Part shown: one piece after another, positions 1-44,517 of the stretch
Position numbering within the stretch: the stretch's first letter is position 1
How the letters are laid out: each line of letters starts with the position of its first letter
NCBI GenBank assembly: GCA_008632985.1
Contig: QPGO01000059.1
Coordinates: 124,001 to 188,000, forward strand
Reading direction: 5' to 3'
DNA length: 64,000 bases
DNA from: Psammoneis japonica
Taxonomy: Eukaryota
Program-made: the position numbers and the translations under genes
Notes under the pieces: model-generated
Told to the model about the DNA's origin: nothing
Seen by the model: only the letters and a program-made list of their open reading frames with translations
Databases searched by the model: none

Positions 1-997
1 CATCACACACTTCCTTGCAGGAATTGTGTGATGACTTTGATGTCTCTGCAAACAGCAGGGGTTCTTTTGACATGTTGGGGCAATGAAAGCAGTTTTTCTT
101 TCCTTTCTTTGCAATGCCGAACCATGTCAAAGGTGTCAGCAAGTGTCTTCATTTCTGTTGCAGGGAGAGGGGCATGAATGTTTTCTTGCCCTTGTCAAAA
201 AACTCTCCAACTGTCCAGCCATCCAATGGCATCTCATGACTGGCACCGATTCAATGCTGGCAACCAAATCTCCAGATGTGCCAAGGTTCAACAGTGCAGC
301 ACCTCTCCATTTTGACTGCTTCGCTGAGTCACCTGAAAGCTGTTGTCACTTGCACCTGCCAGCATGAGTTTGCACTGTCAGGCAATGGCACCAAGAGCAC
401 AAAGGTGTTTCTGAACCTCACGGCATGCATCACCCCAGCTGCAAATGCTGGTGTCATTTTCACCCCACCTCCTTGGATCATCTTTCAATGAAGACAGTGG
501 CACCAGCTCCATGCTGTGAGAGGCACAATCAGGTTGACACGTGTTTTGCATGTGGTGTTGTGTTTCATCATGACTGTGAGTTGATTGTTGTGCAAAGTGA
601 AAGCAAAAATCAGTGTCTCTTCCAAGCTCCACCATCAAATTTTTTGGAGTGTGATGCATGTCTGGTGCACCATGAGGCTGCTCCTTGTGGGAAGACCTCT
701 TGTGCATCAAAGCAAGAACCAACCATCTTTTGTGCTGAGAAATGTGCAGTGGATGACGCGCGGCACACATGTGGCTGCTCCACTGTTTGAAACTGTTGAA
801 GTGGTTCTTGTTTTGCCAGCCACATTTGCTCCCTTTGTCCATCAGAGCCAATGCCAAGACACCCTCCAACCATGTGTGAGAAGTGGAGCATGTGCACAAA
901 AATGATGCTGGCACAATTTTTTGCACACCCCGCCAGCAAAACATGGCATTGTTTTCACCCCATCATCTCAAAAACGCATGTTGAAAGTTCAACTTCA

Positions 998-1863
998 ACA
1001 AGCAGTGATCTCACCTCCATCATTTTGTGAAAAAAACGTCAAACAATTTGATGGATGGACATGTTTCAATGACCACATCTCCATCACAAACCCCATCATT
1101 CAAACAAACCCTCAGTGCCTTGCCCCCTTTTCATTTGCACTTTCTGTTTTGCAGCAGCTTCCAACTCTTTTTGCTGTTCATGAAAAAAGTTCTCACAAGA
1201 TTGTTCCCAGGAAAAAAAATTGCTGAGTCGAACGGGCCAACTCTCACCTTCTGAGAATTGAGTCTTGAGTCTCTTTTGAGCAGATTAATTTTTGGTGGGT
1301 GCCCCAAGCAACATTTTTCCCACCAAGGTTGCTCAGAGAATTGTTTGATGATCATGGTTAAAATGATGGTCTTCACAAAATTTCAGTTGGAGATTTTCCC
1401 ATCTGATGATGACAATGGATGGTGACACCATCTCCTCATGAAAGCTGTTGGCCATTGAGTCTTGTGACTTTGTCAGTCCATGATGCAGGACACTTGGATG
1501 TGTGGACCAACGAAGCTTCAATTTCCAACTGCAGACAGCCACAAAGCAGACAGCATTGCCATTTTTAGCTTGGAAGCTGTCACAAAATGGGCAGCAAGAT
1601 GAATTTGTTTTGCTCATTGTCCTTGTGGGAAAATGCAATCTGAGCAGAATGACCAACTCTGCGCTGAAGGACTGAGCACAAATTTCTGGAGAAAACAAAA
1701 AGGCAGAGCCAAATTCCTTGCACATGAAAAGGGGGTGAGGTGCTGAGAGGGTTTGTTCAGATGATGACAGGTTTTGCAGTGGAGACACAATCATTGAAAC
1801 ATGTCCATCTGCCAAATCATTGGACAGTTTTTTCCCACAAAATGGAGGTGATCACTGCTTGTG
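998..1863. repeat. Degenerate fold-back element with ~140-bp inverted arms (~998-1140 / ~1720-1863)
   Basis: aagcagtgatc…ggacatgtttcaatga…aacaaaccctc…ccccttttcat is matched in reverse complement at 1720-1863; many mismatches are CA/TG swaps. Confidence 0.75.
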
Positions 1864-2500
1864 TCAAATGGCCTTCATGTTGACAAAAGATGACATCTCA
1901 CAATGTCATGAGACAACATTTTGGGGGGCACCCCCACCACTTTTTTGTTTGCAGCTCCTGCAAAGGTGCAGGAATGGCCCCACAATGTCCCAGCCTTTTC
2001 CCACCTGCAAAAAAGGTTCCTTGAAACCAGCCAATCCACCATGAACGACACTTCAAAGTCCAGTTTTCAGAAATTCGATGAACACTTCATCACAGACACG
2101 CTGCAGCGAACATTTTCCGACAATGGAATTTTGCTGAGTGGTGGACATTGTCATGTTTGTCGTCAAAAAGTGAGCACACAAAGCGCCAATCATCATGACT
2201 GAAATCAATTCCTTGAGGTCGTGGCCTGTTTTTTTGCAAAGCACGATGGGAAAAGCACGAGGACAAAACATTCTACGTGAATTTTACACGTGATTTTTGC
2301 ACCAGAAATTGGCACCCACACCCTGATTTTCAGACTCATGACCCCTGCACATGGCATCGGCAGTTCTTCCGATGAAAGCCCCCTGCTGATGGAAGATTGG
2401 ACCAATCAGAATGCTTCATTTCAAGAGTGCACGTTGCAATGCTCAAGGCTTTCTGAAAGAATGCACATCATCATTGTTTGACGATTTCAGTGACACAGAC

Positions 2501-5500
2501 ATGGCCACCTCAATTGACCCATCTCAGATGGACGTGCCGCAATCTGAGCGGCAGTGCTCGGACAATGACACCTCACAAAAATTTCAAACTCCTCTGGTCT
2601 TTTTTCATCTCACTCATCATCAGTGCTGACGTGCACAAGAGAGTTCTGAGAGAAGGAATTGCAGCAGAATGGAGAAGCACTTTGCCCCCAAGCTTCCTGG
2701 CACCATGGGTGTTCAGTCTCAGGCTCGAAAGCCAGCCACAAAAAAAGCAAAGGAGCAAGCTTTTTCTGGAGTCACCAAGTTGATGAGCAAAAACATGCCT
2801 CGGTTTACAACGTCGCCAGCGGCGATGGCAGAATCGCAAATTCTGACTCTGCCAAACAGAAGCACCACTCAAGAAAAGGTTGTTGAGTGCAAAAGGTGCA
2901 AACAAGGACCCTCCTGCAAAAAGGGTCATGATGCGAGTTGCCCAAAACCCACCCACTGTGGAAAAAACATGAGCACCAAGCAAAGTGCAGCTGTCCACCG
3001 CTTCATCACTGGTGACACAAGAAAGAATGCCAAAAAAATGCAGGGTCATCAGCGTCCAACTGAGGAAGGCATGGAGGATCTTTTTCACTCTCACACCAGG
3101 GCTTCAAAAAACAACAAACCATTGGCAACAGCCGTCTTGTCAAATGCCACCACTGCCAGCACCGTCATGTTGAATGCGAGTGCTGTGGCTGCCACTGCCA
3201 TCAGCACTGTCACGTTGAACAGCACAGAGCGTTCTGCTGATGCATTGAAGAAGATCTTCTTTGTCCATCGGTGCCAAAGAGAGAGATTCGGAAACGAATT
3301 GAGACGTGTGAAAAAAAGAAGATTCCTTGTCCCGCGCCCATTCAGGCTTTGATTTTGCATCTTCTGAACTTGTGTCCATCTCAGTTTCATGCCAACTCAA
3401 ATGAGATCATGGGCGGAGAGGTGAATGCAAAGAAACTCAAGTGGTTTCAGAAGAACTTTCCTTCAAGCACCATGTCATTCACCATGCCTCGGGATGATGT
3501 GTCCATGGCTCCTGATGACCTGTGCGCCGAGATTGAGGGAGTGACCATTCACATCCTCCAACGGGAATTGATTGGCCTTGGCATCTGCTTGCTGTGCATT
3601 GAGGGGTGTGCAGATGGTGAGATGATTCATCAGCAGTTCGACATCAAGAGGGAGCACTCGCCAACTGCAATCTTTGATGCAAGTGGCGCCACTGATTGGG
3701 GAACATCTGTGTGCTGCAGGTGCAACAAATGTGGTTGTAAATGCAGAGGCAACAATGCCAAGCTGCTCAAAAAGCTCCCAAGGCATCCACAACTTTGCCA
3801 TCCTGTGGATCTACGCTGTGCCGATGTCAATCCATCTTTTTGTTTGACGTCACCAATGACCCGATGCATCGACCACTCCACGCAGAAGTGCAGCAACGGT
3901 GATGACATGGCCGCCTTCTTGCATCAACAACGAGGTTGCAAGTTTCTTGATGGAGAAGAGTGGCATTTTTTGCAGTCAATCAACGCTGCTGGTGGGAACT
4001 CAACAACTCCATTGTCAGCACATGAGGACTGGATGGGTCGACATGGACCAACAGGACAAAACATGCGAGACATGTGTGATGCTGCACAAGAGTCAGATCT
4101 CACTGAGACTGGCATCAGCAACAACATTTGGCACACGAGGGAAATTCAATCAGGCGGTTGTCACATCAGTGTTGCGTCTGACCACACTTTTGACCAATTG
4201 AAGAATTGCAAAGACGACAACGGCAAGGGACTCTTCACCATGGCCACAGAGACTGGAGAGATTGGCACAGCTGTAGCAGTGCCGACGTTGGAAACCAAAG
4301 ACTGTGCGCATGCAGCCGAACAGTTTGCGAGGCATCCAAACGCAAAACCTCAAGCCCATTGCTCTGACACTTGGCCAAACAAAGAAGAGTTTTGGAAGCA
4401 AATTTTTGGTCAGGATGTTGTGTGCAGGCTTGGTCTTTGGCACTGGACAAACCGCATCATTCGGACTTTACGAGGTGCTCACATTGATTGTTGTCATGCG
4501 GTTTGTGAATTAAGGATGGATCTACGTGCTGCGGTCTAATTTAAAACAGCTCGCATTTCCCGCACTTCACCGTGTTATTTTGACCTGCCTCGGTACACCC
4601 CCGAACACTTATGCGTTCGTCAAACCCTCATAGGGGCTGTTAGACGGCTATAAGAGCTGCACATTTAGCGCTTCAAATGCCACTTATCGACCTATGCCCT
4701 GTTGTCAGGTCGAAAAAACCGCTAATTTTCGCTAAAATCGGGCTTCTTATGGGAGATTAGCGGTAACTTTCTGGGAAATGGCGATAAGTGACATTTGACT
4801 GGCTATAGACATATCTGCAGTCGTTAAGGTAAAAGTCGCGCATGGTCATACCACCTGTCGTTTAGGCATTCTAGGGTGTCTGGCGAACGGACAAAGTTCG
4901 ACCGATCGCTGAAATTTTTTTTTGCGAACGCGCGCGCATTTACTACGATGCATCCGGGTTATTTTATAAAAATTACGAGCTCCCAAAAAACAGACCGCAG
5001 CACGTAGATCCATCCTTAAAGGATTGCGTGCGGTACAACGATGAATCCGACGAGGCGAAGGTAGTTGATGCTCTTGTCTTTGGGAAGCTTGGTGGGAAGA
5101 AGAACACGAGGGAAGAAATTGAGGATGTCAAGAACAGCAAGAAGTGGAACAACTGCAAGAAGTGCATTCAAAGGTGGGCTTGCCCACTTGAAACAAGGAA
5201 CAAGCATCTGGAATCCTGGTTCGATTGACACAAGTGCTCTGCGTCTCCCGGCGTGGCAGAGGCTGGTGGACAGCATGACCCAGACTCTGGGAAACCGCTT
5301 TTTACGGAAGACACAAAGAAGCCAGTGGCTGAAAACACGCAAAATTGTCGGCTCGTGGACTTGATGAGCCGCTGCCACGTGAAGACTCACACAGAGTTGT
5401 CAAGCCTTCAAAATGGTCCAAGTGCAAGCTCGACATGTTTGTGACAACTGCTGGCATGGAATCAAAGCTTGAAAAGCATCACCATGTCGTCAAGCATTTT

Positions 5501-6339
5501 GGAAACACTGGTTCAAGATCCTCTCTGATGGATGCATTGTGCCTTGCAGGAACGTGTGAGTGCAACTTGTCAATGCGAGAGCATGTCAGAATGGACGAAC
5601 TGATGGCTGACGAGCGCGCCATGATTCCGCATGCCTTTTGAGGCGCACCCACTTTTCTCAACCACAGCAGGCTTGACGTGTCAACAAGCTGGCAGAGAAA
5701 GCAGGAGCCCCCCATCCTGTGCATGGGAACGTCAAAGAACTAAAAGAAGATGATGGTGAGAGGCATTTTTCAGCACACCTGGAGCAATTGGAGCATGTGA
5801 GAGAGCAGCTCAAAATGAGAAGAGCTGCAACCGGCACAGCAGCAGCATCCAAAAAAGATTCTGACAGATGCATGTGCAGCAAGTGTGGCACAAGAAACCT
5901 GCATTCAACCCGTTCTAACCCAACACCAAGTGTGGAGAATCCGTGCAAAAGAAAATCCAAGTCACAGCAACCACCGCCGTCTGAGGAGCCGCATGTGAAA
6001 AAAGTCAAACCTTCCAATTTGCAAGAGCAGGAGGTCGTTCCGACAAGACAGCTGCCGCCAGCGCCAATTGCACCACACCCCGCTCCACACTCCATTCCAT
6101 GTTGCACTCTGATTCAAGTTAATCCCTTTTGGAACAGTGCACCAACAGTTTTGCCGCTGCTGCAGATGCCGCCAAATCTGCAGTCAGATCTGAACCAAAA
6201 ACACTGCTGTTTCCGAGTGAGGGAATTTCATCTTTCAAAAACAAACTTGTTGGGGGCGGCTGCTCAAGGAAGAGTGCCACATGATGAACAGTGTTCATCA
6301 AAGCAGTCTCTGAATGTAGATTTGTCACTTGCCTTGTGA
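2501..6339 (+). pseudogene. Decayed DDE transposase of the CxxH-type group (Mutator/hAT/P/Kolobok-like; superfamily unresolved), interrupted by a MITE
   Basis: ORFs 2669-3352, 3271-4539, 5028-5228, 5345-5641 and 5719-6339 carry motifs SDHTF, ETGEI, SDTWP, RLGLWH…RI and ESKLEKHH…HFGNTG plus Cys/His fingers; almost no Tyr; frameshifts and TGA stops. Confidence 0.7.
4514..5015. mobile_element. 502-bp MITE with perfect 24-bp TIRs and TTAA target-site duplication (Kolobok-like GG…CC termini)
   Basis: TTAA(4510-13)|ggatggatctacgtgctgcggtct … agaccgcagcacgtagatccatcc|TTAA(5016-19); removing it rejoins the transposase in frame (VCEL-KDCVRYND). Confidence 0.93.
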
Positions 6340-6842
6340 TTCTGGCCCACGGCGCACCTCGATTGTGGCGCCAAGATGGAACATGGGAAAAGGGGGGCGA
6401 TGCCGCCTAAATGAAATCAACCTTTTGGCTGATGTCCTCTGTCTTCAATGCCGCGAAGCAAGACGCTGCAACGCATCGCATCTGTCTTGCCCTCACTGAT
6501 GCCATTGCTGCGTTCTTCTCCTCGCTTCCTTCCTTCTCTCTTGTCACAGCAGCAACGGGGTTGCTTCGCTCCCCCTCTCCCCCCCTTTTCTTCTGTCGGC
6601 ACCCCCCCATTTTTGCAGTCAGTCGGCGGCAGGCAGGCAACGCAACGCGGAGTCTTCTGAGCACTGTGCCGTTTCTCACACAGGCACATCGACTGCTGCA
6701 AGCATCTGCAAAGCATGGTGGAACAAACATCTTACAGAGGGACTGGAGATTTTAGGAAGAGAGGGTAAAAAAATCAAGACAGAGTGACAAAAATGTGGAG
6801 GCCAGAGAAGCTAGAAAACAAAGTGCCGCTCGCGAGTGCGTC

Positions 6843-8370
6843 ATGCCTTCCGAGAGCAACAACGAAGAAGGGCAGAGTCTGGCAGCTGTGACGATCCCTC
6901 AGCAGTTTGCATGGACTGGTCTAGCTTGTGATGCAGATGAAGAGAAAATGTCACTTGCTGATGCAGGGTTGAAAACAAGTGATGAGAGCGACATTGTTTG
7001 GTTTGATGACCTCACGCTGTGGAACATTCTCGGCTGTGCTGTTGACGTTGGCCCTGACCATCTCAAGTTACAGTGTGTCTGCAAGCCATGGAAGAGTGTC
7101 GCAGACATTCTCGTTCCCTCTGTCATTCTCAAAATGGCACACCGACTTGAAGACCTGTCTGCCCGTGTTGTTGTTCCTCTGGATCAGAGAGCGTTGCCAT
7201 GGGACGAAGCACTCGCGCTTTGCAAGACTCGCGACAGTGCTCTCTACCGCAGAGTTGGAGAACAAACGAATGCGAAACTTTCACACTGGCCAAAGCTTCA
7301 ACCCCAGTTCAGTGTTGCAATTGTTCGATTCGCGTGCGACACTGCAACTCAGCATCATGGATCTCGAACTCTGCATGCATCGATCCAATCCTTCTTTGCT
7401 GCCCTTGCCGATGAATCGGTGGACAAATTTTGGAAGACAATGGAGAAAACAAAATCAGCAAGAGCTGGGTCCTTTGCAGTGCATTGAGGAGCTCGTCACT
7501 CTTTGGCGAGAATGGACTGGCTTGGCAGAAACCGTAGATGGCTTGGCCGACTGCATCAACTGCTGTTTCTTGAAACAGCAAAGTCTTCCTTCGATCTCTC
7601 AGACAGCTGAACGCGCCCTGGTGCGGTCTTGGCGAGCGTCGCTTAGCAGAATTGGCAGCAAGGACTGCGTTGTTGTGCAAGCTTTCATTACGAGTTGCGG
7701 TAGCAAAAATGTCACTAAAGGATTGGAGGCATTCGAACGTGACATTTTTTTGGAAGCATTGAGTGCTTGTGACAGTCTGCAGAGTTTTGCGCAATCCAGA
7801 GAACTGGACGCTCAGCAGATCCCGGGGGAGTGGTGGGCGTCGGCAGACGAGACTTACTCTTCGATTCAGTCTACATTGTCCCCTCTGTTGAAGGCTTCTC
7901 CTGGAGAGGAGCATTTTAAGGCTGATGACGATGCAAAAGCAGTTCCTGCAAAGCCCATCACCACCCAGTGCCCTGGAGGCCACGGGTATACCATGAATAT
8001 GGACAGCCACTTTTTCAAATCCAGCGGATTTTTGAAACGTCTCAAGCTGCAACCTGGTTATGTGATGAGCCTCCCGATTCAACCTGAAAGGATGGAAATG
8101 GTGCTTCAATTTCACACAATCGATGACATAAGCCCCTTACCGAATATTGAGCCACCATTGGTTGACGAATTAGAAGACACTGTTGGCGAGAGCTACTCGA
8201 GGTTCACATTGGACCTGTCAGAATCTACGATTATGGACCTCATAACAGTTGCAAACTTTTTGGATTGCACGAAGCTTTTTAATCTTTCCTGTGCCGCACT
8301 TGCCCAGGTGGTGTGCAGGAAAACGCCTGAAGAAGTTTACCAAATGTTTTCTCAAGAAGAAGAGGCTTAG
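6843..8370 (+). CDS. F-box-like + cullin N-terminal-repeat-like + Skp1 domain fusion protein (one frameshift near 7435-7450; may be a pseudogene)
   Basis: C-term IMDLITVANFLDCTKLFNLSCAALAQVVCRKTPEEV is Skp1-like; N-term FDDLTLWNILG…LQCVCKPW is F-box-like; middle ELVTLWREW…DCINCCFLKQQSLPSI resembles cullin ELVKRW…YLDRYFI…SLP. Confidence 0.7.
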
Positions 8371-8701
8371 TGGACAAGGATACGCCGGAATTAAAAAAGC
8401 AGGAGTAGGCCGAACTGTTATTTGCAGATCGCTCGTGCACGCTTTGTGTGCACCTGTAATGAATTCAAATCAAGAGGCACAGTTTGAACAGAGGGATGTT
8501 ATTTCTTCTTAGGCAATGATTTTTCTATGAGGCTTTGTCGTCGCATCTACTTCCAAAGTTGAGGACATATCAAACGAAATTTGAAGTTCCTTGTCGCCGG
8601 ATATCGAATCACCCCCATGATCGTTTCGTTTTTAGAGGTCTGCGCCAAAATCTTGAATTGTAGGAGTCACATCCCTCCCCACAGCCAGCCTCATTTCCCA
8701 C

Positions 8702-10018
8702 CTACTCGTTCGATCTTTCCTCGTCGTCTTGGTCTTCCTCTTCCATATCATCCTCATCGATATCTTCATCACTAAAATCGATATCTTCATCACTAAAATC
8801 GATATCTTCATCAACAAAATCGATCCAGTCGCTGATCGATAGTGGCACTCGGGGTATCCGCGAAACGTGGACGTCTCAGTTACCTCCACGTATTGACGGA
8901 GTTTCTTGACAATCTTGGTCCCAAAGGTTGTGGGGCAGGGGCGTAGCTTTTGAGCTTGGAAGCAGTGTTATGCTGGAGGGCCTTGAGGAACAAACCACCC
9001 GATAGGTCTGCGTTCTTGGAGTACGTTTCGCAACACGCCTCCCCTTCACCCCAGTCCTCATACATGAAGAACTTTTCCACGGACGTATTCATGGAAAATG
9101 CCAAAGCCAGTGCCTTGATGCCGAGTTCTTCATAGTGCTTACTGCCAGCACCAGCGCAGTTGGAAAGATCCAACGTCTTGTACTTGGTGCACTTTTCGTG
9201 TGCAAGGCCGTACGCAAGGACGACGAGAAAGTCATCCAAGGCGATTTCTTGACCCGGATAGTCATCGAACTTGGCTTCTTGGCCGTTATCCTCAAGTTTC
9301 TTGCTCCAAAGGTAGCGGTCGTTGATGTAGAGAGATCTGAGAAAGGTCTCATCCGCGGCTCCACTCTGGAGTAAACGTCCTTCACCGGACCAAAGATGTT
9401 CCATGAGAAGATCCTTGAGCATACAAGGAGCTACCTGTTTGTACTCTTCTTGATTGACATATCCTTTTTGTAAGTATTGTTCAAAGCACGATTGGCAATA
9501 ATTATTTGCACGTCCTGCTTCAAACGCCTCGAACCATTCGAGCTTTTCGATACGTTCGTATCGGAATTCCGTGTGAATCGGGATTCCACCACAATCGCCG
9601 TCTTGACAATTACAGCCGCAACGACCACATTCCATAACGCCGCATTGATTCATATGGCGGAGCGTTTGCCATTCCTCCTTGGCAATCACACGCTGCACTT
9701 CGAGCGTTAACCAGTTTCGTGGAAAGTTGTTACCAAACAATCCACGAAAGTAGGCGAGAGGCACTTTTCGCCGTCACCGACAAAGTCGACAATGTTGGTT
9801 TCAGGCCACGTACGACGAGCCACCAACGCCCATGATTCTTCCATCACCCACTCACGGGATGACGAGAGCTGGTTCAGTATACCCAATTCTGAGACACCAA
9901 GCCACTCGTTTGCCACCAAAAGCGGGAGAATTTTGTTTGCCAACAGGTCTTGGTGCTCTTGAGCGTTCAGCGTGGTAGACATGCGGCGACGTTTGTTGGT
10001 GTGAACGGTGTAAGACAT
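8702..10018 (-). CDS. Hypothetical protein with F-box-like N-terminus, Cys cluster, LRR-like segment and acidic tail
   Basis: ORFs 9707-10384 (ATG 10018) and 8880-9764 joined by a frameshift; acidic DEDIDFS tail (21-bp tandem repeat ~8756-8813) is in frame after a possible 52-nt GT-AG intron; stop at 8702. Confidence 0.55.
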
Positions 10019-10411
10019 GATGACGAGATGGGAGGAGGGTCGTTCACGTAGCGGATTTGCTGTTGTCGCTGTTGTGATGGCTTTGCGCTGTCGACTGATG
10101 AAGATCTTGTCATTGCCGCTTTTTTGCTCGCGTGCAGTCATTCCGTGAGACGCGCGGTACATTCGCGCATGGAGTCCCGGATCCTCACACATTCGGGACT
10201 CATTGTTCTTTACATTTTGGGCGCTTGTACTACTAACCGTCTGATTTTCGAGTAAGTACTGCTTTCGCGTGGGATGTCCGTGGCCCACCGTTTTGGTCCA
10301 CGTCATTCTCAAAAGAAAAAAATGAGCAAGAACAATGGGCATGTTCACCGCTCCGTCCCCGCCCACTGTTGTAGCACAATTCAAGTCAACAGCCCTTAAA
10401 ACCGACTAAAC

Positions 10412-11518
10412 ATGAGCTCTTTGCCGACTGATGACGACGAGATCTCCGACAAGCATCCGCAATGGAATCGCAAAGAGAATACGGATGGTCCCATGCATGC
10501 GCATTGGGACTGCTTCTCTGGAGCCGCGGGCGACATGATGTTGGCGGCTTGTTTGGATTCGGTATCGTGTGCACAGACACGCCAAGAATTGTTGCAGCAT
10601 GTGCAATTCTGCATTGAAGAAGGTTTGCCAGAATTGAAGGGCGACTTTTCGATTGAAACGAAGCAAGTGTGGAGAGGAAGCGGGTTGATTGCGGCAACGC
10701 ACGTGGTGGTCCAAAGTCGATACAATCATGCGCCAGCTCCAGTACCAACAGCTGAAGACAAACTTGACAAGGAAGAGCCGGAATCGACAAATGATCATTC
10801 CCACTCTCATGACCACGGTCACTCCCACTCTCACGGGCATTCACATGGCCATTCACATGCGCATTCGCACAATTGTAGTTCAACTCGAGAAGAAGAAGGC
10901 GCTGATACCGGTCACGTGCATTCTCACGAACACTCCAGTAACACTAGTGGCCCACTCCGTAACTTACCACAAATCAAAGAAATGCTACTGAAGGCACCAC
11001 CTCGGCATATTTCAGCATGGGTTCGAGACCACGCCATTGCTGCCTTTTCCGCCTTGGCACAAGCGGAAGCAGAAACACACGGTTCGTCCATGGATCGGGT
11101 TCACTTTCATGAAGTCGGTGCGATTGATTCCATTGTTGATACAGTAGGAACTCTTGTCGCCTTGGATGCCTTGGGTATCGAAACGGTATCGTGCAGTCGA
11201 TTGCCTCTGGGCGAGGGAACCGTGTGGACCGATCATGGACTATTACCCGTACCTGCGCCAGCCACGTTGCGATTGATGAGAGGCATGCCGGTTTGTCCGG
11301 GTCCAAAGGGGGTCACTGGGGAACTAGTGACTCCGACAGCGGCAGCCTTGCTCAAGGTCTTGACGAGTTCTACTGCTACGAGCGACAGTACGCAAAGCCA
11401 TAGACCGCCGTGCTTTACGCTACGTCAAGTTGGAGTGGGCGCGGGAACCAAGGATTTCCACAACCATCCCAATATTATGCGATTACTGATTGGAGACAAC
11501 GTACAGTCATCTCCTTAG
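10412..11518 (+). CDS. larC: LarC-family nickel-insertion protein (DUF111), N-terminal domain with His-rich insert
   Basis: Motifs DCFSGAAGDMMLAA, VHFHEVGAIDSIVD, PVPAPAT, GELVTPTAAALL, GVGAGTKDF…PNIMRL; (HSHG)n tract. Confidence 0.92.
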   Translation: MSSLPTDDDEISDKHPQWNRKENTDGPMHAHWDCFSGAAGDMMLAACLDSVSCAQTRQELLQHVQFCIEEGLPELKGDFSIETKQVWRGSGLIAATHVVVQSRYNHAPAPVPTAEDKLDKEEPESTNDHSHSHDHGHSHSHGHSHGHSHAHSHNCSSTREEEGADTGHVHSHEHSSNTSGPLRNLPQIKEMLLKAPPRHISAWVRDHAIAAFSALAQAEAETHGSSMDRVHFHEVGAIDSIVDTVGTLVALDALGIETVSCSRLPLGEGTVWTDHGLLPVPAPATLRLMRGMPVCPGPKGVTGELVTPTAAALLKVLTSSTATSDSTQSHRPPCFTLRQVGVGAGTKDFHNHPNIMRLLIGDNVQSSP

Positions 11519-25185: not shown

Positions 25186-25621
25186 CATCCACGTATTCAC
25201 CAGGCAAAATTGGCAAAAGTCGGGTATGGCAAAAAGTGTGCATTTGGTCAAAATTGATCATTGAGTGCAAATGGTGGTGTCTTTAGGGTCCCTTTAGTGA
25301 GCCGAACACGCACATTTCTCATTTGACCATCATGGGTCCGTCTTATGGGGGGTGTCAAAACGTCGTGCTGTGACGCGTCTTGAAAATTAATTGTTAAATA
25401 ACGTATCCAGCCACCAAGGTTATATAAAATTGAAAATTCACACATTGAAGCACGACATTTTACACCCCCTGTAAGACGACCTGTGATGGTCAGATGAGAA
25501 ATGTGCGTGTTCGGCTCACTAAAGGGACCCTAAAGATGCCACCATTTGCACTCAATAATCGATTTTGACCAAATGCACACTTTTTGCCATGCCCGAGTGT
25601 TGCCTGGTGAATCCGTGGATG
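25186..25621. mobile_element. Hairpin/MITE-like element: ~180-bp inverted arms around an ~80-bp AT-rich spacer
   Basis: 25186-25369 is the reverse complement of 25449-25621 with few mismatches. Confidence 0.9.
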
Positions 25622-28600
25622 CGGTGTTAATCAACTCTTGACAATGAGGAACAACAAACAACCAGTCCAATGACCCACTGATGTGGTCCGTGATTGAGGA
25701 CGCAATGATCAGAGACATGACGACACGACCACAAACTTGGAGGTGAGGGCTCTTTAAGATGACCGCCTCTGGCAACGTTGCAAACGCAGTGGTCCAGCCC
25801 AGCCTCCCATCATCGCATTGCACACACAGCACTTGTGATGCAATTCAAACTGGAGTGGAGGGTTTCCCAAGCAGAAATGAAAGAATGGAGGATCGATCGA
25901 CAATGGATGGTTTTCGATCGTGGAAACTCAGCACGGATCTCCCCATGGATTCTGCGCAAACACGATTGGCTCAGCTTTTGCTCTCGATTCTCCCAACACC
26001 CATCGTTTTTGGCCCAACATTGAGTGGTGTGTTGGTGCACAGCAGATGTGTTTTCATCCTGGGTTAGAAACTTTTGGACACATCACGAGGCTTTCCACGT
26101 GTTTCTACATGAGACGTGCATTTGGCACCAAAAACATCAGTGAAAAATGAGCTCCATGACAGCAAAAATGTGTTTTTCCATGTCTCGAACCACAAACCAC
26201 AATTCGCGCAAACCGAAAATGGCACCATGCCGTCGCCATGAACTCGTCCATTCTTGCACCAACGGATGTTGTGACTGAGAAGGCAAGAATGCCGAGACAG
26301 GTCAACAAGACAACGCTCAGTGCGATGATGTGGTTGAAAATTTGATCTTTGTTTTTTGTTGTGCCTTGTGGACAGCCTTTTGACTCATGACATTTTTGAT
26401 GCCTCTTTCTCTCTTCCTCAGCTTGCGAAGCAGGATTCTCATCAACGTGCTGCTCCATCTGCTTGACACCGGATGCTGACAACGAAGAATGTTTCTGTGA
26501 CACGTTGCTGTGATTCTCACAATGTATCGTCCGCACTTTGAGTCGTTGTGGATGACGCTTTTGGGTCACGCGACAACATCAGATTTCTCTGCCGACAAGA
26601 GAATCGTTGTGTGTTCAGTTTTGAGGGTGTGTGGGGACAAAGAATCTCAGATGCAAGTGTGACAGTTTCATTGTTGTAAAGTGGAACAACACCATTGGCG
26701 ACATCTCAGTGTCGCAGCCATTTTATTTTATTCTAAGATAGAACCAGTCATTTTGAGTGGTGAAATTTTGTCAACATTTCATCTTTAACTCCACCCAGGC
26801 ATGTCAAATCACACAACAACTGGGCACACATTGAACTTTGACGCCACTGTTTCAATCCCATTGTTTTATTCACTCAAGTGTCCCACACAGGTCGACAAAT
26901 CAGTCGATTTTTGAAATGGCCGATCGCGCAAAAAAATCACGTGCGAAGTCAGTTCCCCCGATTTTTCTCATGCAAATGACAGAGTTGGAACGCCGTTCTT
27001 TTTTGGTGTGAGCTCTTCACACAATGAACAATGCGTGCATTCTTTCAAAGCAGTCAGATTCGGTGAAAGAAACAGCAGAAAAGTCTCTCAAATGCACCAG
27101 AACAACAACAACGAGCAGATGGCTGTCAGTTTCACTCCAAAAAATGCCGCTTTCGAGACAGCGCTTTTCTTGTGCGCACCCTTCAACCAATGAGAACAAC
27201 GGCTGGCTTTTCAAAACAAACATGTCTGTGGAAAGAAGAAATGAAAAATTGGGGGAAAGTCCAGTCAGATTTGCTCACACAAAAAGCACGGCGACGGAAA
27301 AGGGACAGACGAAACGTCTCACCTCTGCATGCGCGTTTCTCACCTGGGATGAAAACACATCGGCAAAGAAGCACGCTGCCCTTCATTTTGGGAATGCACC
27401 TCAGCCTCTCAATCATTGTGGGAGTCAGCAAAAAGTGCAACGAAAAGGTCGCAGCGTGTTCCACCGTCGGTTTGTGACAGCACTGTGCTGTGATCGTCAC
27501 GAGTCGCAAGTCAGACACTTTCCACACACAAGCGAAACAGAAGACTGGCCATGCACCACATCTGTTGTGGCAATCACAACTCTGAGCGCGCGAGGCAGCA
27601 CTGTGAGGGCATGACCGTGGCTCTTCTTGAACACAAGCACATGAAGAATTAAATTCTGCAGGCTTGAGAGATGCTGCTGGAGGCTGCTCTTTGCGCACGA
27701 GCTCTGCCCACCCCTGAGCAGGGGCATCTGCACAAACATTTGGCCGTGTGAATTGCGCCGAGGGGTGAATCTGAAAAAGGTGTTGGGCGTGCTCGCATCT
27801 TGTCTTCGTCACATTGGACACATTTGCGAAGACAAATTGTCAACATGATCACATGTGAAATGCCCTGGAACTGAATTTGCACAGAGGCCCCTGCACCGCG
27901 ACAACTCTGCACACTGTCAAACCATTTCGCCACTCAGAACCCAAATCGCACCACACAAACACCGCAGTTCATTGATGCTGTTCACCTGATGGGCCACTCT
28001 GACTGTGCTCTCCCTCTTCCTCAGAAAGCAGGGGCACACACCTTTGCCACAAGTCACGCATGAGAACACTGTGCCGCTGGTTTGAGGGGAATTCATCGGT
28101 TGTTGCAAAATGTTGAGTTGGTGAGATTCGGCGAGTCTGGTGATGACAACGGTTCTTGCGACAGCGTTTGTGCCAAATTTCTCATTCATTGTTTGTTTCC
28201 CCCCAAAGGCAACACGTGGCTCACTCAACATCATGCAAGAAAATGCTGTGGATGCATCCACTTCATGAAGTGTGAGGACTTCATTGTGGACAATTGTCTT
28301 GTCTCACGGAGCAAGCAGATTTGCCACCGGTGCACTGCGTGGTGAAACTTTGGGTCAGCGGTTGATCTCTCAGAGGGTTTCTGTGGCTGCATCAACCAGA
28401 GCTGACAATGTTCTGCTCCCTTGACTGTCGAGACAGGGTTGGGGGGCAGCTGATGAGCTCCACAAATGATGTGCCGATGCGATCCTTCAAAGCCATCCAG
28501 ATTGTGTGCAGAAGCACTTCGAGGTTTGGTGCATCGACCGCTGGACAGCAGCACAGACTCTCAATGATTGCCTGTCACAAAGTGTGTTGTGGGAACAATG

Positions 28601-28701
28601 GGACTTGCCATGGTGTCATTGGTGTGGGTGGATCTGGATGACAATGCCATGGTTGGTGGCATTGACGACAAGCTCTGTGGATTGACCATGCTGGTTGCAT
28701 T

Positions 28702-30560
28702 TCATTTGACCTGGAATTGGTTCAACGCGGGACATTGTGCCGTTGTGATTCTGCTCCAATGTGAGTCATCATTGAAGTGAAATTGTGCATTGTCATCACA
28801 TCCTGCTCTCACGAACACTTCGCATCTGCCGTCCACCCCCTTCTTCATGCACGCGTCCAAGATGCCGGATGCTGTCCATTGAAGGACGGTGAGTCCCGCC
28901 GTTGTAGAGTCAGGGCTCTCATTGCTTCGTGGTCTGGAGTGCACTGTTTGTCCAACATCCTTGCATTGTGACAACAGGGTGACAAGTTCAGTTGTGGTGT
29001 GATCCCCTTGAGTGTTCTGAACCACATTTTGGACAAGGAATTTGACGACTCCATCTTGTTTCACTGGTGGAAACATGCTCCCAAAATCGTTTGTACAGTG
29101 AGGACATGCGTTCCCACATGGCTCGATTTTCTCATTGATGTTGTTGTCAAAAGGGTTGCTGCTGCACCTTTCGAGCTCTGCGTTGAGACAATCGCAGCGG
29201 AGACAAAGACATGAGGTGAGTTCATTGAGTTGTCTGACTTCCACATTGACAACTTCTTTCCTCGGAAGAATGTCCTCATTGCCGTCTCTTGATCCCTCTT
29301 TGCCGCAATCATTCTCGTGGATTCGTTGCAACAGATGCAGGCAGTCATGCAACGAGAACACAATCACAAACTCGTCTGCATCTGGGGTTGCATTCTTTCT
29401 GTGTCCTGCTCGTCCGAGCTCCTGCATGAAATCAAGAATTGACGTCGGGATGCCATCGCGAAGCACCAAGTGAACATCTGAAGAATCGAGGCCAGCCCCT
29501 GCTGAGCCAGCGGTTGCAATCAAAATCCGAGGATTGCAATCCTCTTCATCTGTGTCTCCTGCGTTGGCATGAGATTCTGTAAAGAGACGGGCACAGAAGA
29601 ATTTCTGTTCCGCAAACAGCTCCCCATTGATTTCGACCACATCCCCTGGTGTGTTCTCGTGATCTAGAAAATCGTTGAGGCCATTGGTGATCGTTGCAAC
29701 AGCTTTGCGAGAGTTGCCACATGTGATTGCCTTTTCGTTCGTGTTTTTCTCAAGAAGATTTCGGCACCGATCCTTCAACTTGTTTCCCTTCTTCTGTGCT
29801 GCAACCATTCTCATTCTCAGCTGGCGTCTTTGCATGTCTCTTGTGTCAGCCCAAACGCACAGGCTCTCATCAAGGGAAACTGATGTCATTGACTGAAACA
29901 TTTTTGCCAGATCGAGATCCCACATGGCCGTCATGATCAGCATGGGTGCTCGCAGCTCCCTGCTTCCGTTCGGCTGCGTCCTGTCGCATGTCCATTGGAA
30001 CAATGTGTTTTTCAACTTGGCAAAATCACGACAAAAGGCAAGTCCAAAGTTTGCGTGCAGATGCACCTCATCAAAGGCAACCAATCTCAGCTGTTTTCGT
30101 TTTACAATCTCTTTCAGTGCAGATTGCCATTCTTCTTTCAGTGTTGCCTGCGGCGACGCAAAAACGAATGCGGTTGTTGCGCGGGACAGTCCCAGGAGGG
30201 CCGAAGTGATTGACGACTTTGTGGAAGGCTGCTTCACTTTGTCAAGATGAGCCGCAATGACTGATCCTGTCCGTCTTCCAATCTGATTGATTTCCTCCAC
30301 TTGATTGGTTGTCTTTGCCTCTTGATCAGCACCGACAGAAAGAAGTGGCACGACTGTCAGCACCACACCCCTGAGAATGCTTCCAGCGCATTGAACAACT
30401 GCCGATTTTCCACCAGACGTTGGCTGGACAACTGTGGCAGCGCCAACTGTGAGGCGTTGGCCGTGGTTGGACGGCAGATGCATTCACACGATTTTTCCAA
30501 CAGCATCACGCTGGAACGCATGCGGCTCATGCCCCCATGCCGACATCATCTCTTGATCAA
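28702..30560 (-). pseudogene. RecQ-like helicase domain of the AcademH-like element
   Basis: SF2 motifs I-VI present; 593-aa ORF with zero Tyr; premature TGA at 30484-86. Confidence 0.88.
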
Positions 30561-31545
30561 CAGATGAGTCCAAATGTGTCCAACCCATCCTTTCAAAAGG
30601 CAGTTGTTGAGACAGGTGATGATTGGGTGACAATGCAGCCGATGCATCCTTGCGGATCAGAGCAATCTCTGTCGATGGCAACGACGACGTTCCCTTGATG
30701 TGATGGCAGAGCTTCTTTTTGACTTGACGCTGTCGCCTTCCTCTGCGATCAGCACTCTTCCGAACAGCCGACAGGTCCACTCGCCTCATGTTTTCAATGC
30801 CATTGCTGCGGACGTCTGCCAAGGCCTTCTTGTGCAAGGGATGCAGCTTCTTCGGAAGCCGGATCTTTCCACCGCTTTTTGCAGTGATTGTTGATCCTGG
30901 CTTCAAGCTCAACGGTGAGTTTGAAGATTTCATGGTTGTCTTGTTGCATGGAACTGTTGCTGATGATTCGCTTGCCAGCAGCTCCGATTCAATGTCCCCT
31001 TCTGTCTCTTCCATGGTCTCGGTGGCTCCGCTCTCTGCAATGTCCTTTGTCGTTTCCTCCGTTGTTTCCAGAGGTCCGTCTGCTTTAATTTCTTCTGCGG
31101 CTTCATTGGATGCACCATCAGCATCTGGCTCCTCTACAGTGTCAGATCCTGCACTTGATTGACACCCTGAAACAAGAACTTCCATTTCACAATCAGACGG
31201 CTCGATGTCTCCGTCACTCTTCTCAAACTCATCAGCAAGGTTTTCTCCATCATCTGGATTGCCTTTCCCGTCATGGTCAATGACGACACATGCATCACCA
31301 ATGCCACCATCGCTCGTGCCGTTTTCTTTGCTGCCATCCAAGCAAGCCTCGTCGTCCTTGATGCAGTTGGTTTCATCAACAGGTTTCTCACTCTCTTTCT
31401 GCTCCTCTGGCGAAAGCGCTTCAGTTACGGCAGCACCAATGAGATCCGGTTTCGGATCACTGCACTCGTTTTGCTGCTTCTTTGGGTTCTTCAAGTCGGT
31501 GGCAGTTTGTGCGAGAGTGTTCCAGACGGTGCGATCTGTCATCTT

Positions 31546-34500
31546 TCACCCTTCGCTCACTTTACCAGCACCAAGGAGCACTGGCATTTCACAGACAAGA
31601 GATTGCTCTCGCTTTGCACTTGGATGCTTGGTCTTTGCTTTCTTGTTCCCTGCGTCTTTGTTCCATTCTGGAGAGCTTGTTTGACGAAAGACCATGTCAA
31701 CGCATTGAAGAGCTCGCCTCGATGCTGCAAGATGACAAGAGCTACGCTGGTGAGCCTTTGCGGTCTTTCCTGCTGGAGCAGACGTTTCTTGCCACCCATT
31801 GACCGTTTCTACAACATCATCCAGTTCACGTCGGTGAGTGGGCTGACCGTCTCCATCACATCCTGCACAAAACCTGGCCGCTCGGTTGACACACACTTCT
31901 TGCAGGAGGGCGAGTGGCAGGTCTCGGCGCAGTGTCTTGGCTTGTGACAGACTCAGCTTGAAGTGCCGATGCTTGCCAAGATCAAGCCACACTGGTGCCC
32001 ACCACTGAATCTGGTGTTCTGTCGTGCAGCTGTTGCCACAACGAACTGCTGATGAAAGCATTTTGTGCTGCCATCCAAGGTGAGCAAAGTTAATCAGCAA
32101 TTTCCAAATCTCATCATCCGACGTTTCCCACACATGTTTCAACCATGCATCAAATTGATGAGTGCAGCACATGGCAAATCTCTCCGTCCCAAGACATGAC
32201 AGCACTGACACCAGCGTGGCCCCCCTTTCTGCCTCGAAGGTGTCTAGCATCAAACACTCTACTTCGCCCATGATGAGCATGAAAAGCTCATCCGCAAGCT
32301 GGAAACACTCAGCCACTTTGAGTTTCATTCGCTTCCACCCAAGAGCGGTCTGCATCGGTTGCAAGAATCCTCCATGGAACAATCGGAATGTTGGACCAAG
32401 CGTGTGAAACTTGACATGCAAATCCCCAGGTGCGGGAACAATCCTTGCCAGGGCTTGCTCAAATTCAAGGATCTGGCAGCAGCACTCATCAAACGTCACT
32501 TTCGACTTGTGCAGCATTTTAATGAAGGCCGTCAGATTGTCCAAACTCAATAAATCGCCAACAACATAGACCCACTTTTCTTCCATGTTTGGTGCCGCCT
32601 TCCATGAGACACGCCCTGTTGTGGTGTCCTTTTCCTCGACAAGCAGACCTGCAAGAACAAGAAAGTCAAGCAAAACAGTGCCGGCCCCAAATGTTGTTCC
32701 CTTGATTCATGACGAGAGCGGCAGAATGGCAAACGCATCGGCCAGTTCTTCGAACTCATTCCACGAAGAGACCATCCTTTGCTGAAACTTCCCTGCTGCG
32801 CGAAGCAACCCCACTCGCATCTGATGGAATGACTTCACGATTGCTCGGCGCTCTTTACTTTCGAGATGCTCCTTTGGCATGTGAGCCCATTCTTTGTCTT
32901 CAAGTGAGCCCTTTTGATGGATCAAGTTCAGAATCTGGGCAGTTCACAGCAATCGAATGTGGGCTTCCATCCGATTCCCCGAGCTGTCGACAGTGCTCAT
33001 TCATTCTTCGCATCCCCCCCACTTTGCTGGATCCATTAGAACCACAATGATCTCGTCCCTTCCATTGACTTTCTCATGTGGAGGCATGCCCAGTGGTGAC
33101 GGAACACTTTGATCGACACACGCAAGCTCCGGTCTGGCATGCATCTGATCTGGGCACTCGGGTCCCACGTGTGCATGGATTTTCTTCAGAACTTCTGTCG
33201 TTGCCTCCCAGAACGAGCTTGAGCTGCCGATGGGTTCCAGTCCTGGGTGGGACTCCGTGTGACATTGGGCCTGTAGAATTCTACGTGCGAGCTCCGCAGC
33301 ACAAGAATTCAATCAATGGACATGTTTGTCTTCAACATCAAACAAGCTGCCAAGTTTGTGGTGCAATTGTGCCTCTTGCCACTCGACGTTTTTGCAAATG
33401 CGCCTGCCCTGCGCAATTCTTAAGACATTGTAGAATCGCGCTGTAACAAAAAATGTCAAAAGTTGTTGGACGGATCTCTCAATGAGTGTGCCGTAAAATG
33501 ACACAAAATGTCGAAAAAATCACGTAGAAATCTACGTGCGCGACATGCGACGTGATTCAAAAAACTGTCGATGTCACAGTTCAGCAGTGCGAGGTCCCAC
33601 CTAGACCTGGAACGCGTCTGCCTTCACGTTGATCCTTCTTCTTCTCTCCCACCTGGGAGTTGTCGAGCGCAAACATGCAACAATTCCCGGAGCAGCACGG
33701 ACAATCTTGAGGCATGCGAGTCTGCAAACTCCTTTGTTTGCCACTCCCAAGTGGTCTTTGTGATTGATGTTCCAAAGAATGATTCACATCGATTGACGGC
33801 ATCACTTTCTGATCTAGCAAGTCCAGCGGCATGACAGATTGCTGCCCAGAACACTGCACTTGAATTGTTGCGGACACGGCACATTGCAAGGAAGCAACAA
33901 AGAACAGTTCTTTGCTCCACTCCGCATCGCAGCTGCTTGCGAGCATTGTTCTTCCGGATGTCAAACCCAAGAAGCCGTGGTGAGATTGTGGCGTGAGCAG
34001 CATCAGCTGTTGTCCGAAAGCATGATGCCAGATCATCCACTTGAGAGAGTGACAAGATCGGTTCCAACAGCACAACACAGTTTCCACAGCTTTGCTCCAA
34101 AGCAGACCTGCACGTTTCGTTCACCTTGTCCAGCACTTTCATCACATCGGGACCTGCCAGTGATGCTCAAAGAAATTCTTCTTTTGCTCGCAGCTTTCTA
34201 AGGTCACTTTCTGCAGCATGATGGTCGGCTCCAACTTTGTCAAGAGACAACAGTGACAGCAACAGTCGGTCGCCGTCTAGTTCCTCAGCGAGTGCACCAT
34301 TGCGTCTGTTGGCATTCTTGTTTTTGAAGCTTTCAAAAAAGCTCATTGGGGTGGGATTGTTGGCATCACACCACAGCTCCAGTCTGACAATGGGGTCATC
34401 ACCAAATGCACGAAAGTCCATCCATTTGAATTGGATGTCATGTGGAATCCCCGGAAAGGAAAGCATCAGTCCTTCTCCTTTTGCAACACATTCATTCATC

Positions 34501-35147
34501 TGCTGCAGTGGCATTTGCCGCTTGACTGCTGAATCTCGTTGAGGATTTGTTCACACAACTCCAGACAGCTCGTGGTGCGAGCTTCCACGACCACGAAATG
34601 CAACTTTGGCACTGTCATGATCTGCAATCGACCTGATGGATGAATTCGCAACCTCTAAAGATGGGTGGTCATTTGGAACCTTGATGAGGACGGGTGTTTT
34701 GACCGGCAGCATCATGATCTCTTCCGCGACCATTCTTCACCATGAAGTGGGGGCTGCTGGGTTGCCACTCCTGTCTTGAGACTCTTGCGTGTCCTTGGTT
34801 TCATTCAACAGATGAGAAGATCTCCTCGGCTTGGTTCTTCCATCTTGCCGTTGCTGTTGATTCCAACGCACGTCAAAATTGTGACGAATCTTTCTCATCA
34901 CAGACGACAGGTTGCTTTTCCCATTGTCTCTCATTTTGCAAAAGGTGTTTGTGAGGGATGTGGCAACAAGAGACACTCCAGTGGCACGAGAAGTCCTGCT
35001 TGACCGCCTTTTCGAGTTCTTCCTTTCCTTCTCACGCTCAGCTGCAGTTGATTCTCTCTTTCGCTTCTGGCGAGCGACTTGCCTTTTGATTTGCTCTTTT
35101 TTAGGCTGGCACTGCTTCTTGTGGCTGCTCTTCTTTGGAGGCATGGT
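31546..35147 (-). pseudogene. Academ-type transposase, fragmented
   Basis: ORFs 34737-35150, 33624-34145, 33581-34087, 33001-33312, 32707-32925 and 31546-32673 with DN / GDLLS / GDLH motifs. Confidence 0.72.
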
Positions 35148-43400: not shown

Positions 43401-44154
43401 CAGATGGAGGACAACAAAAACAAAAATGAAAAAATGAGAAAGAGGAAATCGAGGATCTCCTGATGGGGTGACAGACGCACAGTTCAACTTTTGAGTGCAG
43501 CAAGCGGGCGGTCAGATTGCAGCCAAAGCACTGTGAAGATCGCTGAGGCAAGATCGCAAGCTTCCTGTCGATCGATCACCTCACTTCTCTTCATTCTCTC
43601 ATTCACTTTAACTTCACTCTGCAGACTGCAGGCAGTGCACTTTATTTCACTGTTCTTTTTAACTAAAAAAGATGGCAACTTCCAAAAATCAAAACAACAA
43701 GCATCAAGAAGAGAGATCAAGATGAAGCATGTGTCAAGATGGGAGCCTGGGCAGAAGAGGTGACGGTGGGGTCAGGTTGTTCCAACCAAGTGCAATGCAA
43801 TGAATGTTGTTGTAGAGTGTGAATGTCACAACAAACAAGAGTGCAGCTGACACTTTCAGAGCTTTCTTGCTGTTGGAGGAGAGGATCGGCTGGTGCAGAT
43901 TTTGAGCTGTGGTTGATTGGAGACTTGCAAGAGCTGGGCATCTTGCAGACAGTTGAGTTGCAATGTCAGGGCACTGAAACTGCAACATCACAAAGAAGAG
44001 AGCTGATGATGTTTCTCAGCAGCTGCCATTGGGTCGTTGCAGCTCTGCATCAGTGCCTGTGCAGCTGCCCCTTTTGTGAGCGGGGTTGCCACACAAAGCT
44101 CACCTTGGGTGTGTGCCAGCATGAGGCAGTTGCACCACAATGACAAAGACACTG

Positions 44155-44517
44155 AGGGTTGAAGGGGGATGCTTTGTCATGCCTGTGTTTGGAAGGTTTG
44201 TGCCACCATGGTTTTGAATCTCTTTGCACTTTTGTCCCAGATTGCAGCACACTCTCTGTGCAAAATTCCAAATGATTTTTGGCTCCTTTTGTGCCAGCCT
44301 TTCAGCACAAATTTCAAGTGCAACTTCACACAGGGTTGAAGGGGAATGTTTTGTCATGCCTGCATTCAGAGGGTTTGCGCCACATCATGGTTTTGGATCT
44401 CTTCACACTTTTGTCCCAGATTGCAGTGCACACTCTCTCTGTGCAAAATTCCAAATGGATGTTTGGCTCCTTTTGCGCCAGCCTTTCAGCACAAATTTCA
44501 AGTGCAACTCCACACAT
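44155..44517. repeat. Direct tandem duplication, ~177-bp unit x2
   Basis: agggttgaagggg…ttttgtcccagattgcag…cagcacaaatttcaagtgcaact at 44155 and 44332. Confidence 0.9.

Follow-up and report, generated by a model that had tools for sequence, protein, structure and literature searches.

A single gene on the plus strand of contig QPGO01000059.1 of Psammoneis japonica (assembly GCA_008632985.1) joins an F-box-like motif, the first repeat of the cullin Cul1 and a Skp1 domain in one chain, and lies at positions 6843 to 8370 of the 64,000-nucleotide stretch analyzed here (contig positions 124,001 to 188,000), referred to as the window. The cullin part derives from Cul1 as judged from its sequence, the catalytic end of the cullin is missing, and this architecture is conserved in 10 intact relatives. 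Ligases of the Skp1-cullin-F-box (SCF) type rely on the exchange of separate F-box, Skp1 and cullin subunits; the protein described here is a conserved natural one in which the three interface modules are hard-wired and the catalytic end has been dropped. No published description of such a fusion was found in a literature search that left most subscription journals outside, and the sequences indicate known parts in an undescribed, conserved arrangement. The initial annotation of this DNA had proposed a single chain with an F-box-like motif, a cullin N-terminal repeat and Skp1 but no catalytic end, which is what the intact relatives conserve.

The relatives were found by searching a profile of the N-terminal 224 positions against 1.84 billion representatives at E values up to 0.001. 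Among the 19 matches, 10 were full-length (472-563 residues) and collinear end to end, one lacked the F-box start, seven were partial and one (P0138) was an unrelated repeat protein. An organism was named for one of the 18 related matches only, the diatom Seminavis robusta, whose Sro1487_g276770 is called an 'expressed unknown protein' and is listed in the supplement to its genome paper as a core gene with the InterPro label IPR016159, cullin repeat-like; the main text of that genome paper (PMC7335047) does not mention Skp1, cullin or F-box. By sequence, the gene thus belongs to a small family so far linked by name to a diatom only. Pairwise identity among members is only 20-36%, with the domain order kept. 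The family alignment used below (A4) holds 24 rows, including five pieces from this genome and two near-copies of P0126, with P0138 and P0139 excluded; at E values up to 0.1, Pfam found Cullin in 12 and Skp1 in 8 of these rows. Homolog searches based on words brought up a single ordinary Skp1 and, for the N-terminal half, no match, and pattern scans of metagenome contigs confirmed no relative. Viral relatives were not found in IMG/VR scans, which had limited reach and in which 40 pattern loci scored at most 12.7 bits, and BFVD, likewise of limited reach, gave only stand-alone Skp1-like proteins at E below 0.001. The genome searched comprised 91 Mb, with the window on the contig designated C60, and held one paralog at C148:123039-124754 with 85% DNA identity, so that the suggested search for proteins of the same architecture yielded this copy in addition to the 10 full-length relatives.

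Two overlapping open reading frames of the plus strand, 6756-7487 and 6973-8370, span the region. Reading through one extra base in a run of G at 7467-7469 yields 508 codons from ATG 6843 to TAG 8370, and a family profile built without both local copies aligned with residues 6-505 of the resulting protein at 333 bits. Correction of the frame, as had been suggested, therefore gave one reading matched end to end by the family, and the cullin assignment obtained from the relatives can be transferred to the window copy. The features of the gene and its upstream flank are as follows.

5900 to 6620, no strand assigned: end of a dispersed repeat, a probable transposon, with 33 places in the genome including this one, many of which end at about 6613-6623.
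6843 to 8370, plus strand: intronless fusion gene of 508 codons with F-box-like motif, cullin-1 repeat 1, extra helices and Skp1, from the reading frames and the family profile.
6843 to 6845, plus strand: putative and doubtful start ATG, with ACG instead in the paralog and in the two short-read contigs that span the site, at the same place as the start of the relative P0132.
6894 to 6914, plus strand: family-specific N-terminal motif IPQQFAW, conserved in the family alignment and predicted to be disordered in the model of the relative P0130.
6999 to 7124, plus strand: F-box-like motif that lacks both the proline and the acidic residue of LPxE, below the Pfam F-box cut-off and the best conserved block of the family.
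7170 to 7653, plus strand: cullin-1 repeat 1, which begins at the Cul1 N-terminus and extends through the helix that follows YLDRYY, by family HHalign, joint alignment, repeat-1 profile and fold matches.
7287 to 7310, plus strand: family-specific insert WPKLQPQF inside cullin repeat 1.
7467 to 7469, plus strand: one G too many in a run of G, interrupting the assembled reading frame and probably an assembly error, with the short-read contig gap listed at 7467 and the paralog in frame.
7654 to 7893, plus strand: three to four further helices, which resemble the next helices of cullins loosely in fold and show no match to cullins by sequence.
7894 to 7953, plus strand: variable linker of about 20 residues, the least conserved block (0.28), with a predicted local distance difference test (pLDDT) score below 50 in the relative's model.
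7954 to 8370, plus strand: Skp1 domain with the POZ core and following helices but without the last Skp1 helix, from PDB, ESM Atlas and alignment with canonical Skp1.

The single frameshift described earlier is indeed present in the assembly, and is probably absent from the DNA of the organism. A short-read contig over 7410-7738 was identical at 328 of 328 letters, with no other letters and one gap, listed at 7467. The DNA run from which it was built (X1) contains 0.79 of the sampled words and may be the assembly's own sample, and the comparison is therefore a check of the assembly and not an independent observation. Contigs of the paralog type from the same run covered 7410-7689 (31 other letters, one gap) and 8016-8380 (60 other letters, no gaps), and both lacked the two frame breaks of the assembled paralog, which differs from the window in those spans at 33 and 62 places with three and one gap columns, respectively. 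Since the short-read contigs lack them, all three frameshifts, one in the window and two in the paralog, are probably assembly errors. Two further contigs of X1 are recorded here as side observations: one joins 7309 to 8270, a skip of 960 whose short side is only 29 letters, at a depth of 36, and another carries an extra A behind 6944. These may represent a second, broken haplotype or gene copy.

Taken alone, the window sequence does not reveal its cullin segment. No cullin was matched in the raw sequence by Pfam or by phmmer against PDB, nor by tblastn against the cullins of this genome, and the ESM Atlas, given the raw sequence, returned a best value of 0.89 and an F-box cluster at 0.88, with no cullin. 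Against a profile of diatom Cul1, the score of the read-through protein was reached by 72 of 1000 shuffles, that of the C-terminal frame by 21 of 1000 and that of the paralog's N-terminal frame by 259 of 1000. HHalign of the two local copies with cullin gave a probability of 0.4%. The Pfam check proposed for the raw window was thus negative for cullin and gave F-box and Skp1 below their cut-offs.

The cullin N-terminal repeats that had been proposed were recovered, as one repeat, through the intact relatives. HHalign of the family with diatom Cul1 gave 97.4% (E 1.4e-11) over Cul1 residues 44-157, and a joint alignment of the family with cullins reached the Cul1 N-terminus. With the Pfam Cullin profile, the best relative reached E 5e-7 and 29.2 bits, under the cut-off of 33.2, and none of them attained it. 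A profile of diatom-type Cul1 only scored 10 of 17 relatives at 5-48 bits, compared with shuffle maxima of 1.1-3.9 bits (eight scoring relatives, 300 shuffles each); the other seven obtained no score, and two of these are fragments that end early. The family's repeat-1 profile gave 115.7 bits for the window, 42.4 for this genome's own Cul1 (itself nearest to diatom proteins), 8.8 for its Cul3 and 1.6 for its Cul4, and this difference among the cullins identifies Cul1 as the source. The restored tyrosines that resulted from reversing the local mutations in the initial annotation also agreed with the family, in which the relatives have Y at those columns. Matches to cullins stop near Cul1 residue 160-170. 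The cullin part consists of one repeat (Cul1 repeat 1) and helices whose resemblance to cullins is confined to the fold, the region 7654-7893 having received no cullin score from the domain profile. The family profile searched against PDB by sequence found Skp1 and no cullin. The reported lack of a C-terminal Rbx1-binding and neddylation region held in the family matches, in the fold search and with Cullin_Nedd8, which matched none of the 24 rows and gave E 3e-26 for the genome's own Cul1.

The Skp1 assignment was more direct. The C-terminal 138 residues of the window protein form the domain, with a phmmer match to Skp1 in PDB at E 2.7e-6 (query residues 167-289), and the top ESM Atlas clusters for this part were Skp1 (0.91). 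Pfam Skp1 gave E 0.008 for the window, below cut-off, which was reached by five of the 10 full-length relatives, and the family profile matched Skp1 in PDB at E 3e-10. A 'clear Skp1 C-terminus' had been noted previously; Skp1 was borne out, and the whole domain is present rather than its C-terminus alone. Unlike a stand-alone Skp1 of about 160 residues that ends in the last helix, this unit is fused behind about 370 residues, and the last helix is kept in only one of the 10 full-length relatives (P0130) and is absent from the window copy. A tree of Skp1 domains did not resolve its origin among the genome's three other Skp1-like genes. Besides the canonical one on contig C151, these include two divergent stand-alone genes, L023 (C208:68440) and L024 (C69:76904), which cluster together in a small tree.

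The F-box-like motif that had been described is present by Pfam at 6999-7124 and stays below the cut-off in all copies. The E value was 0.038 for the window piece and 5e-4 for the paralog piece (20.2 bits versus a cut-off of 20.5), and the best relative gave 1.7e-5, also below cut-off; the highest score among the relatives was 24.7 bits versus 25.5. In the family alignment, F-box and F-box-like were each found in seven of 24 rows at E values up to 0.1, none at cut-off. This block is the most conserved region of the family, at 0.62 compared with 0.43-0.50 for the cullin and Skp1 parts. The proline at position 2 of LPxE occurs in one of 15 relatives and in neither local copy, and the acidic residue is mostly leucine. 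According to PMC3237615, the proline and the acidic residue touch Cul1 and the proline aids Cul1 binding, although binding is not determined by it alone and it is dispensable in beta-TrCP. Judged from sequence, the near-absence of the proline argues against efficient loading on host Cul1.

The structure prediction that had been suggested was informative for a relative only. For the N-terminal half of the window copy, a model from three rows had a pLDDT of 34.6 and no meaningful fold match. AlphaFold2 on the family alignment with P0130 as target gave a mean pLDDT of 72.9 and a predicted template modelling score (pTM) of 0.74; 116 of the 563 residues were below 50, with disorder at 1-70 and 379-401, and a pTM of this size in spite of disordered residues suggests a fixed arrangement of the domains. 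When this model was compared with 48,161 chains by VIA-align, the top 10 consisted of seven cullins and three Skp1 chains (three chain names in the list being inferred from entry titles), among them Cul3 4ap2_B (Z 13.7, rmsd 4.7, 193 aligned), Cul2 4wqo_D (Z 13.5, rmsd 2.8, 140 aligned), Cul1 8or0_A (Z 10.0, rmsd 3.6, 181 aligned) and Skp1 1ldk_D (Z 12.3, rmsd 2.4, 115 aligned). BTB domains followed Skp1 at Z 7-9, the first unrelated helical bundle appeared at Z 7.6, and a second fold search agreed. The aligned ranges reach P0130 residue 375, past cullin repeat 1, with rmsd 3.6-4.7, and the rmsd rises to 7-8 once the C-terminal Skp1 tail is included. Foldseek gave Skp1 chains only among the 50 matches listed. 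Values of Z below 13 can be generic for helical bundles, as the tool warns, and the cullin claim is therefore carried by the sequence evidence.

In SCF structures, helices two and five of the first Cul1 repeat make the contact with Skp1, whose C-terminal helices in turn carry the F-box. Two Cul1 motifs located on or beside the Skp1-binding helices, TQRxPxN...Y and YxxRYYxxHHxL, are retained by the family. At the level of single residues, Cul1 Y72 is kept in nine of nine relatives, Q61, R62, P64, Y126, Y130 and H135 in eight each and R129 in seven, while Y48 and Y52 are replaced in all nine and T53 is replaced too.

Comparison with known systems places the protein closest in content to the SCF complex itself (PDB 1LDK), which has the same three modules by Skp1 fold, cullin repeat 1 and F-box-like sequence. 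The fusion differs from it in being one chain instead of three, in having no C-terminal cullin, Rbx1-binding or neddylation part and no known substrate-binding domain, and in its F-box without LPxE and its usually missing last Skp1 helix. Engineered dominant-negative Cul1, which titrates Skp1 and receptors when truncated at its C-terminus (PMC3020946), is likewise a cullin N-terminal part without the catalytic end, but is artificial, longer and without Skp1 or F-box of its own. CACUL1/CAC1 occurs naturally, has a presumptive cullin domain, and lowers ubiquitination of the substrate of a cullin ligase with which it associates; its target is Cul3-Keap1, the passages of PMC4523873 consulted do not mention a Skp1 or F-box fused to it, and the likeness is one of description. 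BTB-BACK/3-box adaptors of Cul3 (KLHL, SPOP) combine a Skp1-like BTB fold and an F-box-like helical unit in one chain, but they lack a cullin repeat, possess a domain for substrate binding and engage a complete cullin in trans, whereas the domain of the fusion is Skp1 by sequence.

Without an Rbx1-binding or neddylation domain, the fusion protein would be incapable of ubiquitination by itself. As the likeliest working model, to which we give slightly less than even chances as a whole, the chain may close on itself and serve as a decoy that diverts F-box proteins or whatever else binds the SCF head. This corresponds to the decoy or self-assembling regulator suggested in the initial annotation. 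It would fold back into a pre-assembled SCF head, in which the cullin repeat would cover the Skp1 face that real Cul1 would bind, and the weak internal F-box would occupy the Skp1 groove and be displaceable. Incoming F-box proteins, or other head binders, would then be held off the catalytic Cul1-Rbx1 core, a role comparable to that of truncated Cul1 or CACUL1. Closure in cis is, on the model, somewhat favored, and the decoy role, argued by analogy, is a tentative proposal. Several observations weigh against this model. A chain that closed completely would make a poor decoy, and the pTM is the sole measure that points to closure in cis. It was obtained for an atypical protein: P0130 alone among the 10 full-length relatives retains the last Skp1 helix, and its nearly canonical Skp1 tail may be chimeric. 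Pfam yielded no F-box match at its cut-off and the fold searches left the F-box part uncovered, half of the second cullin helix is altered (EYVQIYTT to F..L[M/V]RF), and the best conserved motifs are new ones, which fits a new function unrelated to SCF.

Two other functions deserve consideration. An improbable one is a bait-bearing F-box receptor, in which the N-terminal F-box would plug into host Skp1-Cul1-Rbx1 and the unit of Cul1 repeat and Skp1 would mimic an empty SCF, capturing host or viral F-box proteins for degradation. Ordinary F-box proteins carry the F-box N-terminally, as here, this block is the best conserved of the family, and loss of the last Skp1 helix in nine of the 10 full-length members would loosen an internal grip on the F-box. 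Additionally, F-box-like proteins that target the ligases of the host occur in giant viruses (PMC10583209). The rarity of the LPxE proline and the mostly leucine acidic position speak against such a receptor, as do the compact chain suggested by the pTM and the expectation that a tethered internal F-box should outcompete host Skp1. A repurposed scaffold appears a little less improbable, though still unlikely: a self-satisfied SCF-head fold without subunit exchange, whose new surfaces would act on another partner. The candidate surfaces are IPQxFxW, SxLYR, WPxLQPQF and SSGLL..L.L..G, many columns identical in at least eight of the 10 members are family-specific motifs and not canonical SCF residues, the interface helices have diverged from Cul1 and Skp1, and the order of domains persists at the low identity among members. 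Retention of YxxRYYxxHHxL, TQRxP and the Skp1 helical core speaks against a scaffold, although cis contacts alone could explain it.

A pair of distinct genes, or a chimera produced by chance or by the assembly whose likeness to cullin is spurious, would account for the lack of significance of the window segment on its own and for the uninformative single-gene model. The 10 single-chain relatives from other sources, the span of the family profile over the read-through protein, the short-read contig that crosses the break in frame and the InterPro label of the S. robusta gene refute this explanation, to which we attach next to no credence.

If the fusion binds F-box proteins, it would be a new type of SCF regulator. 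A more far-reaching and rather unlikely extension is that this diatom single-chain mimic of the SCF head polices F-box proteins, viral ones included, either holding them or, as bait, destroying them, in which case the ubiquitin system would have a decoy that is both natural and integrated. The protein would also offer a single-chain template for the Cul1-Skp1-F-box interface, and the intact copy in the cultured and sequenced S. robusta makes direct testing possible.

The two copies in P. japonica are in a different state from these relatives. The duplicated stretch takes in downstream DNA (8689-8771), and the duplication therefore arose at the DNA level; the paralog is in frame at 7467, and the copies still differ in length at two places, by 15 and three bases. 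By thirds of the window gene, the observed/expected ratio of the dinucleotide TpA is 0.10, 0.19 and 0.46, compared with 0.13 in the paralog and 0.47 in the genome's own Cul1, and it is 0.07-0.18 over 5001-7500. Only 10 of 32 TpA steps of the window copy are kept in the paralog, whereas each of the 15 remaining dinucleotides is kept at 68-86%. Of the 22 TpA steps that changed, 16 have become TG or CA. The dispersed repeat, ending about 230 bases upstream of the gene, is the likely source of the TpA-erasing domain. At 10 tyrosine columns of the family, the window copy has three Y, six C or H and one F, and the paralog has no tyrosine in 512 residues, compared with 6-18 in each of the 10 relatives. 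In this way, TpA hypermutation erases from the local copies a homology that is visible only through relatives. The signature seen in and around this gene, TpA to TpG or CpA, has also been reported from Bigelowiella natans in a preprint (bioRxiv 10.64898/2026.01.13.699255), which does not mention diatoms in the text consulted; integrated viral DNA is hit there, whereas here a host gene beside repeats is affected and no viral relative was found.

We consider it fairly probable that the window copy, like its paralog, is now non-functional, and give a clearly smaller, though not negligible, chance to an intact working gene whose frameshift would stem from the assembly and whose substitutions would be tolerated. 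The latter is favored by open frames in the short-read contigs for both copies, the absence of internal stops, the small length differences and an ATG where the relative P0132 begins. Selection points the same way: omega between the copies is 0.51 (95% 0.38-0.69) overall and 0.21 in the F-box, with 0.72 (0.53-0.96) in a neutral simulation, and 41 synonymous ordinary changes were counted against a neutral median of 32 (p 0.04), so that purifying selection, if weak, may mean that the two local copies are not dead. On the other side, the cullin repeat has suffered changes or deletions at Y, R and P residues that the family conserves, R62, R129 and the P64 loop being lost from the window copy, and the ATG is replaced by ACG in the short-read contigs and the paralog. 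The stop codon of the paralog has changed to CAG, a repeat ends just upstream, and zero internal stops have a probability of 0.08 under neutrality when TpA erasure is modelled, which makes their absence weak evidence. The run search found no RNA run among the listed holders of the gene's words. Upstream, the paralog (L006) has an in-frame ATG at 5933 and a GT...AG stretch of 69 bases at 6050-6118, which might, speculatively, be an intron that removes the stop codon lying between them. Where the paralog has this GT, the window reads GC, a change of the TpA type.

Other TpA-poor DNA was observed around the gene. Large blocks nearly free of TpA, some also without CpG, occupy 1-4500, 25500-35000, 41000-50000 and 51000-52000 of the window, and one of them includes a long helicase-like frame at 28702-30483 (Helicase_C E 5e-4). 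Positions 6655-6810, immediately upstream of the start codon, have a 71% identical copy at C60:116809-116948 (L028), 14 kb away in another TpA-erased block. A 510-base element at 4510-5019, with 49-base inverted ends that start and end with TTAA, has a TpA ratio of 0.97 inside and 0.06-0.10 in its flanks. It is probably a young miniature transposon that landed in this block once its mutation had taken place. Downstream of the gene, 10400-11518 encodes a histidine-rich LarC-like nickel insertion protein (Pfam Ni_insertion E 3e-64).
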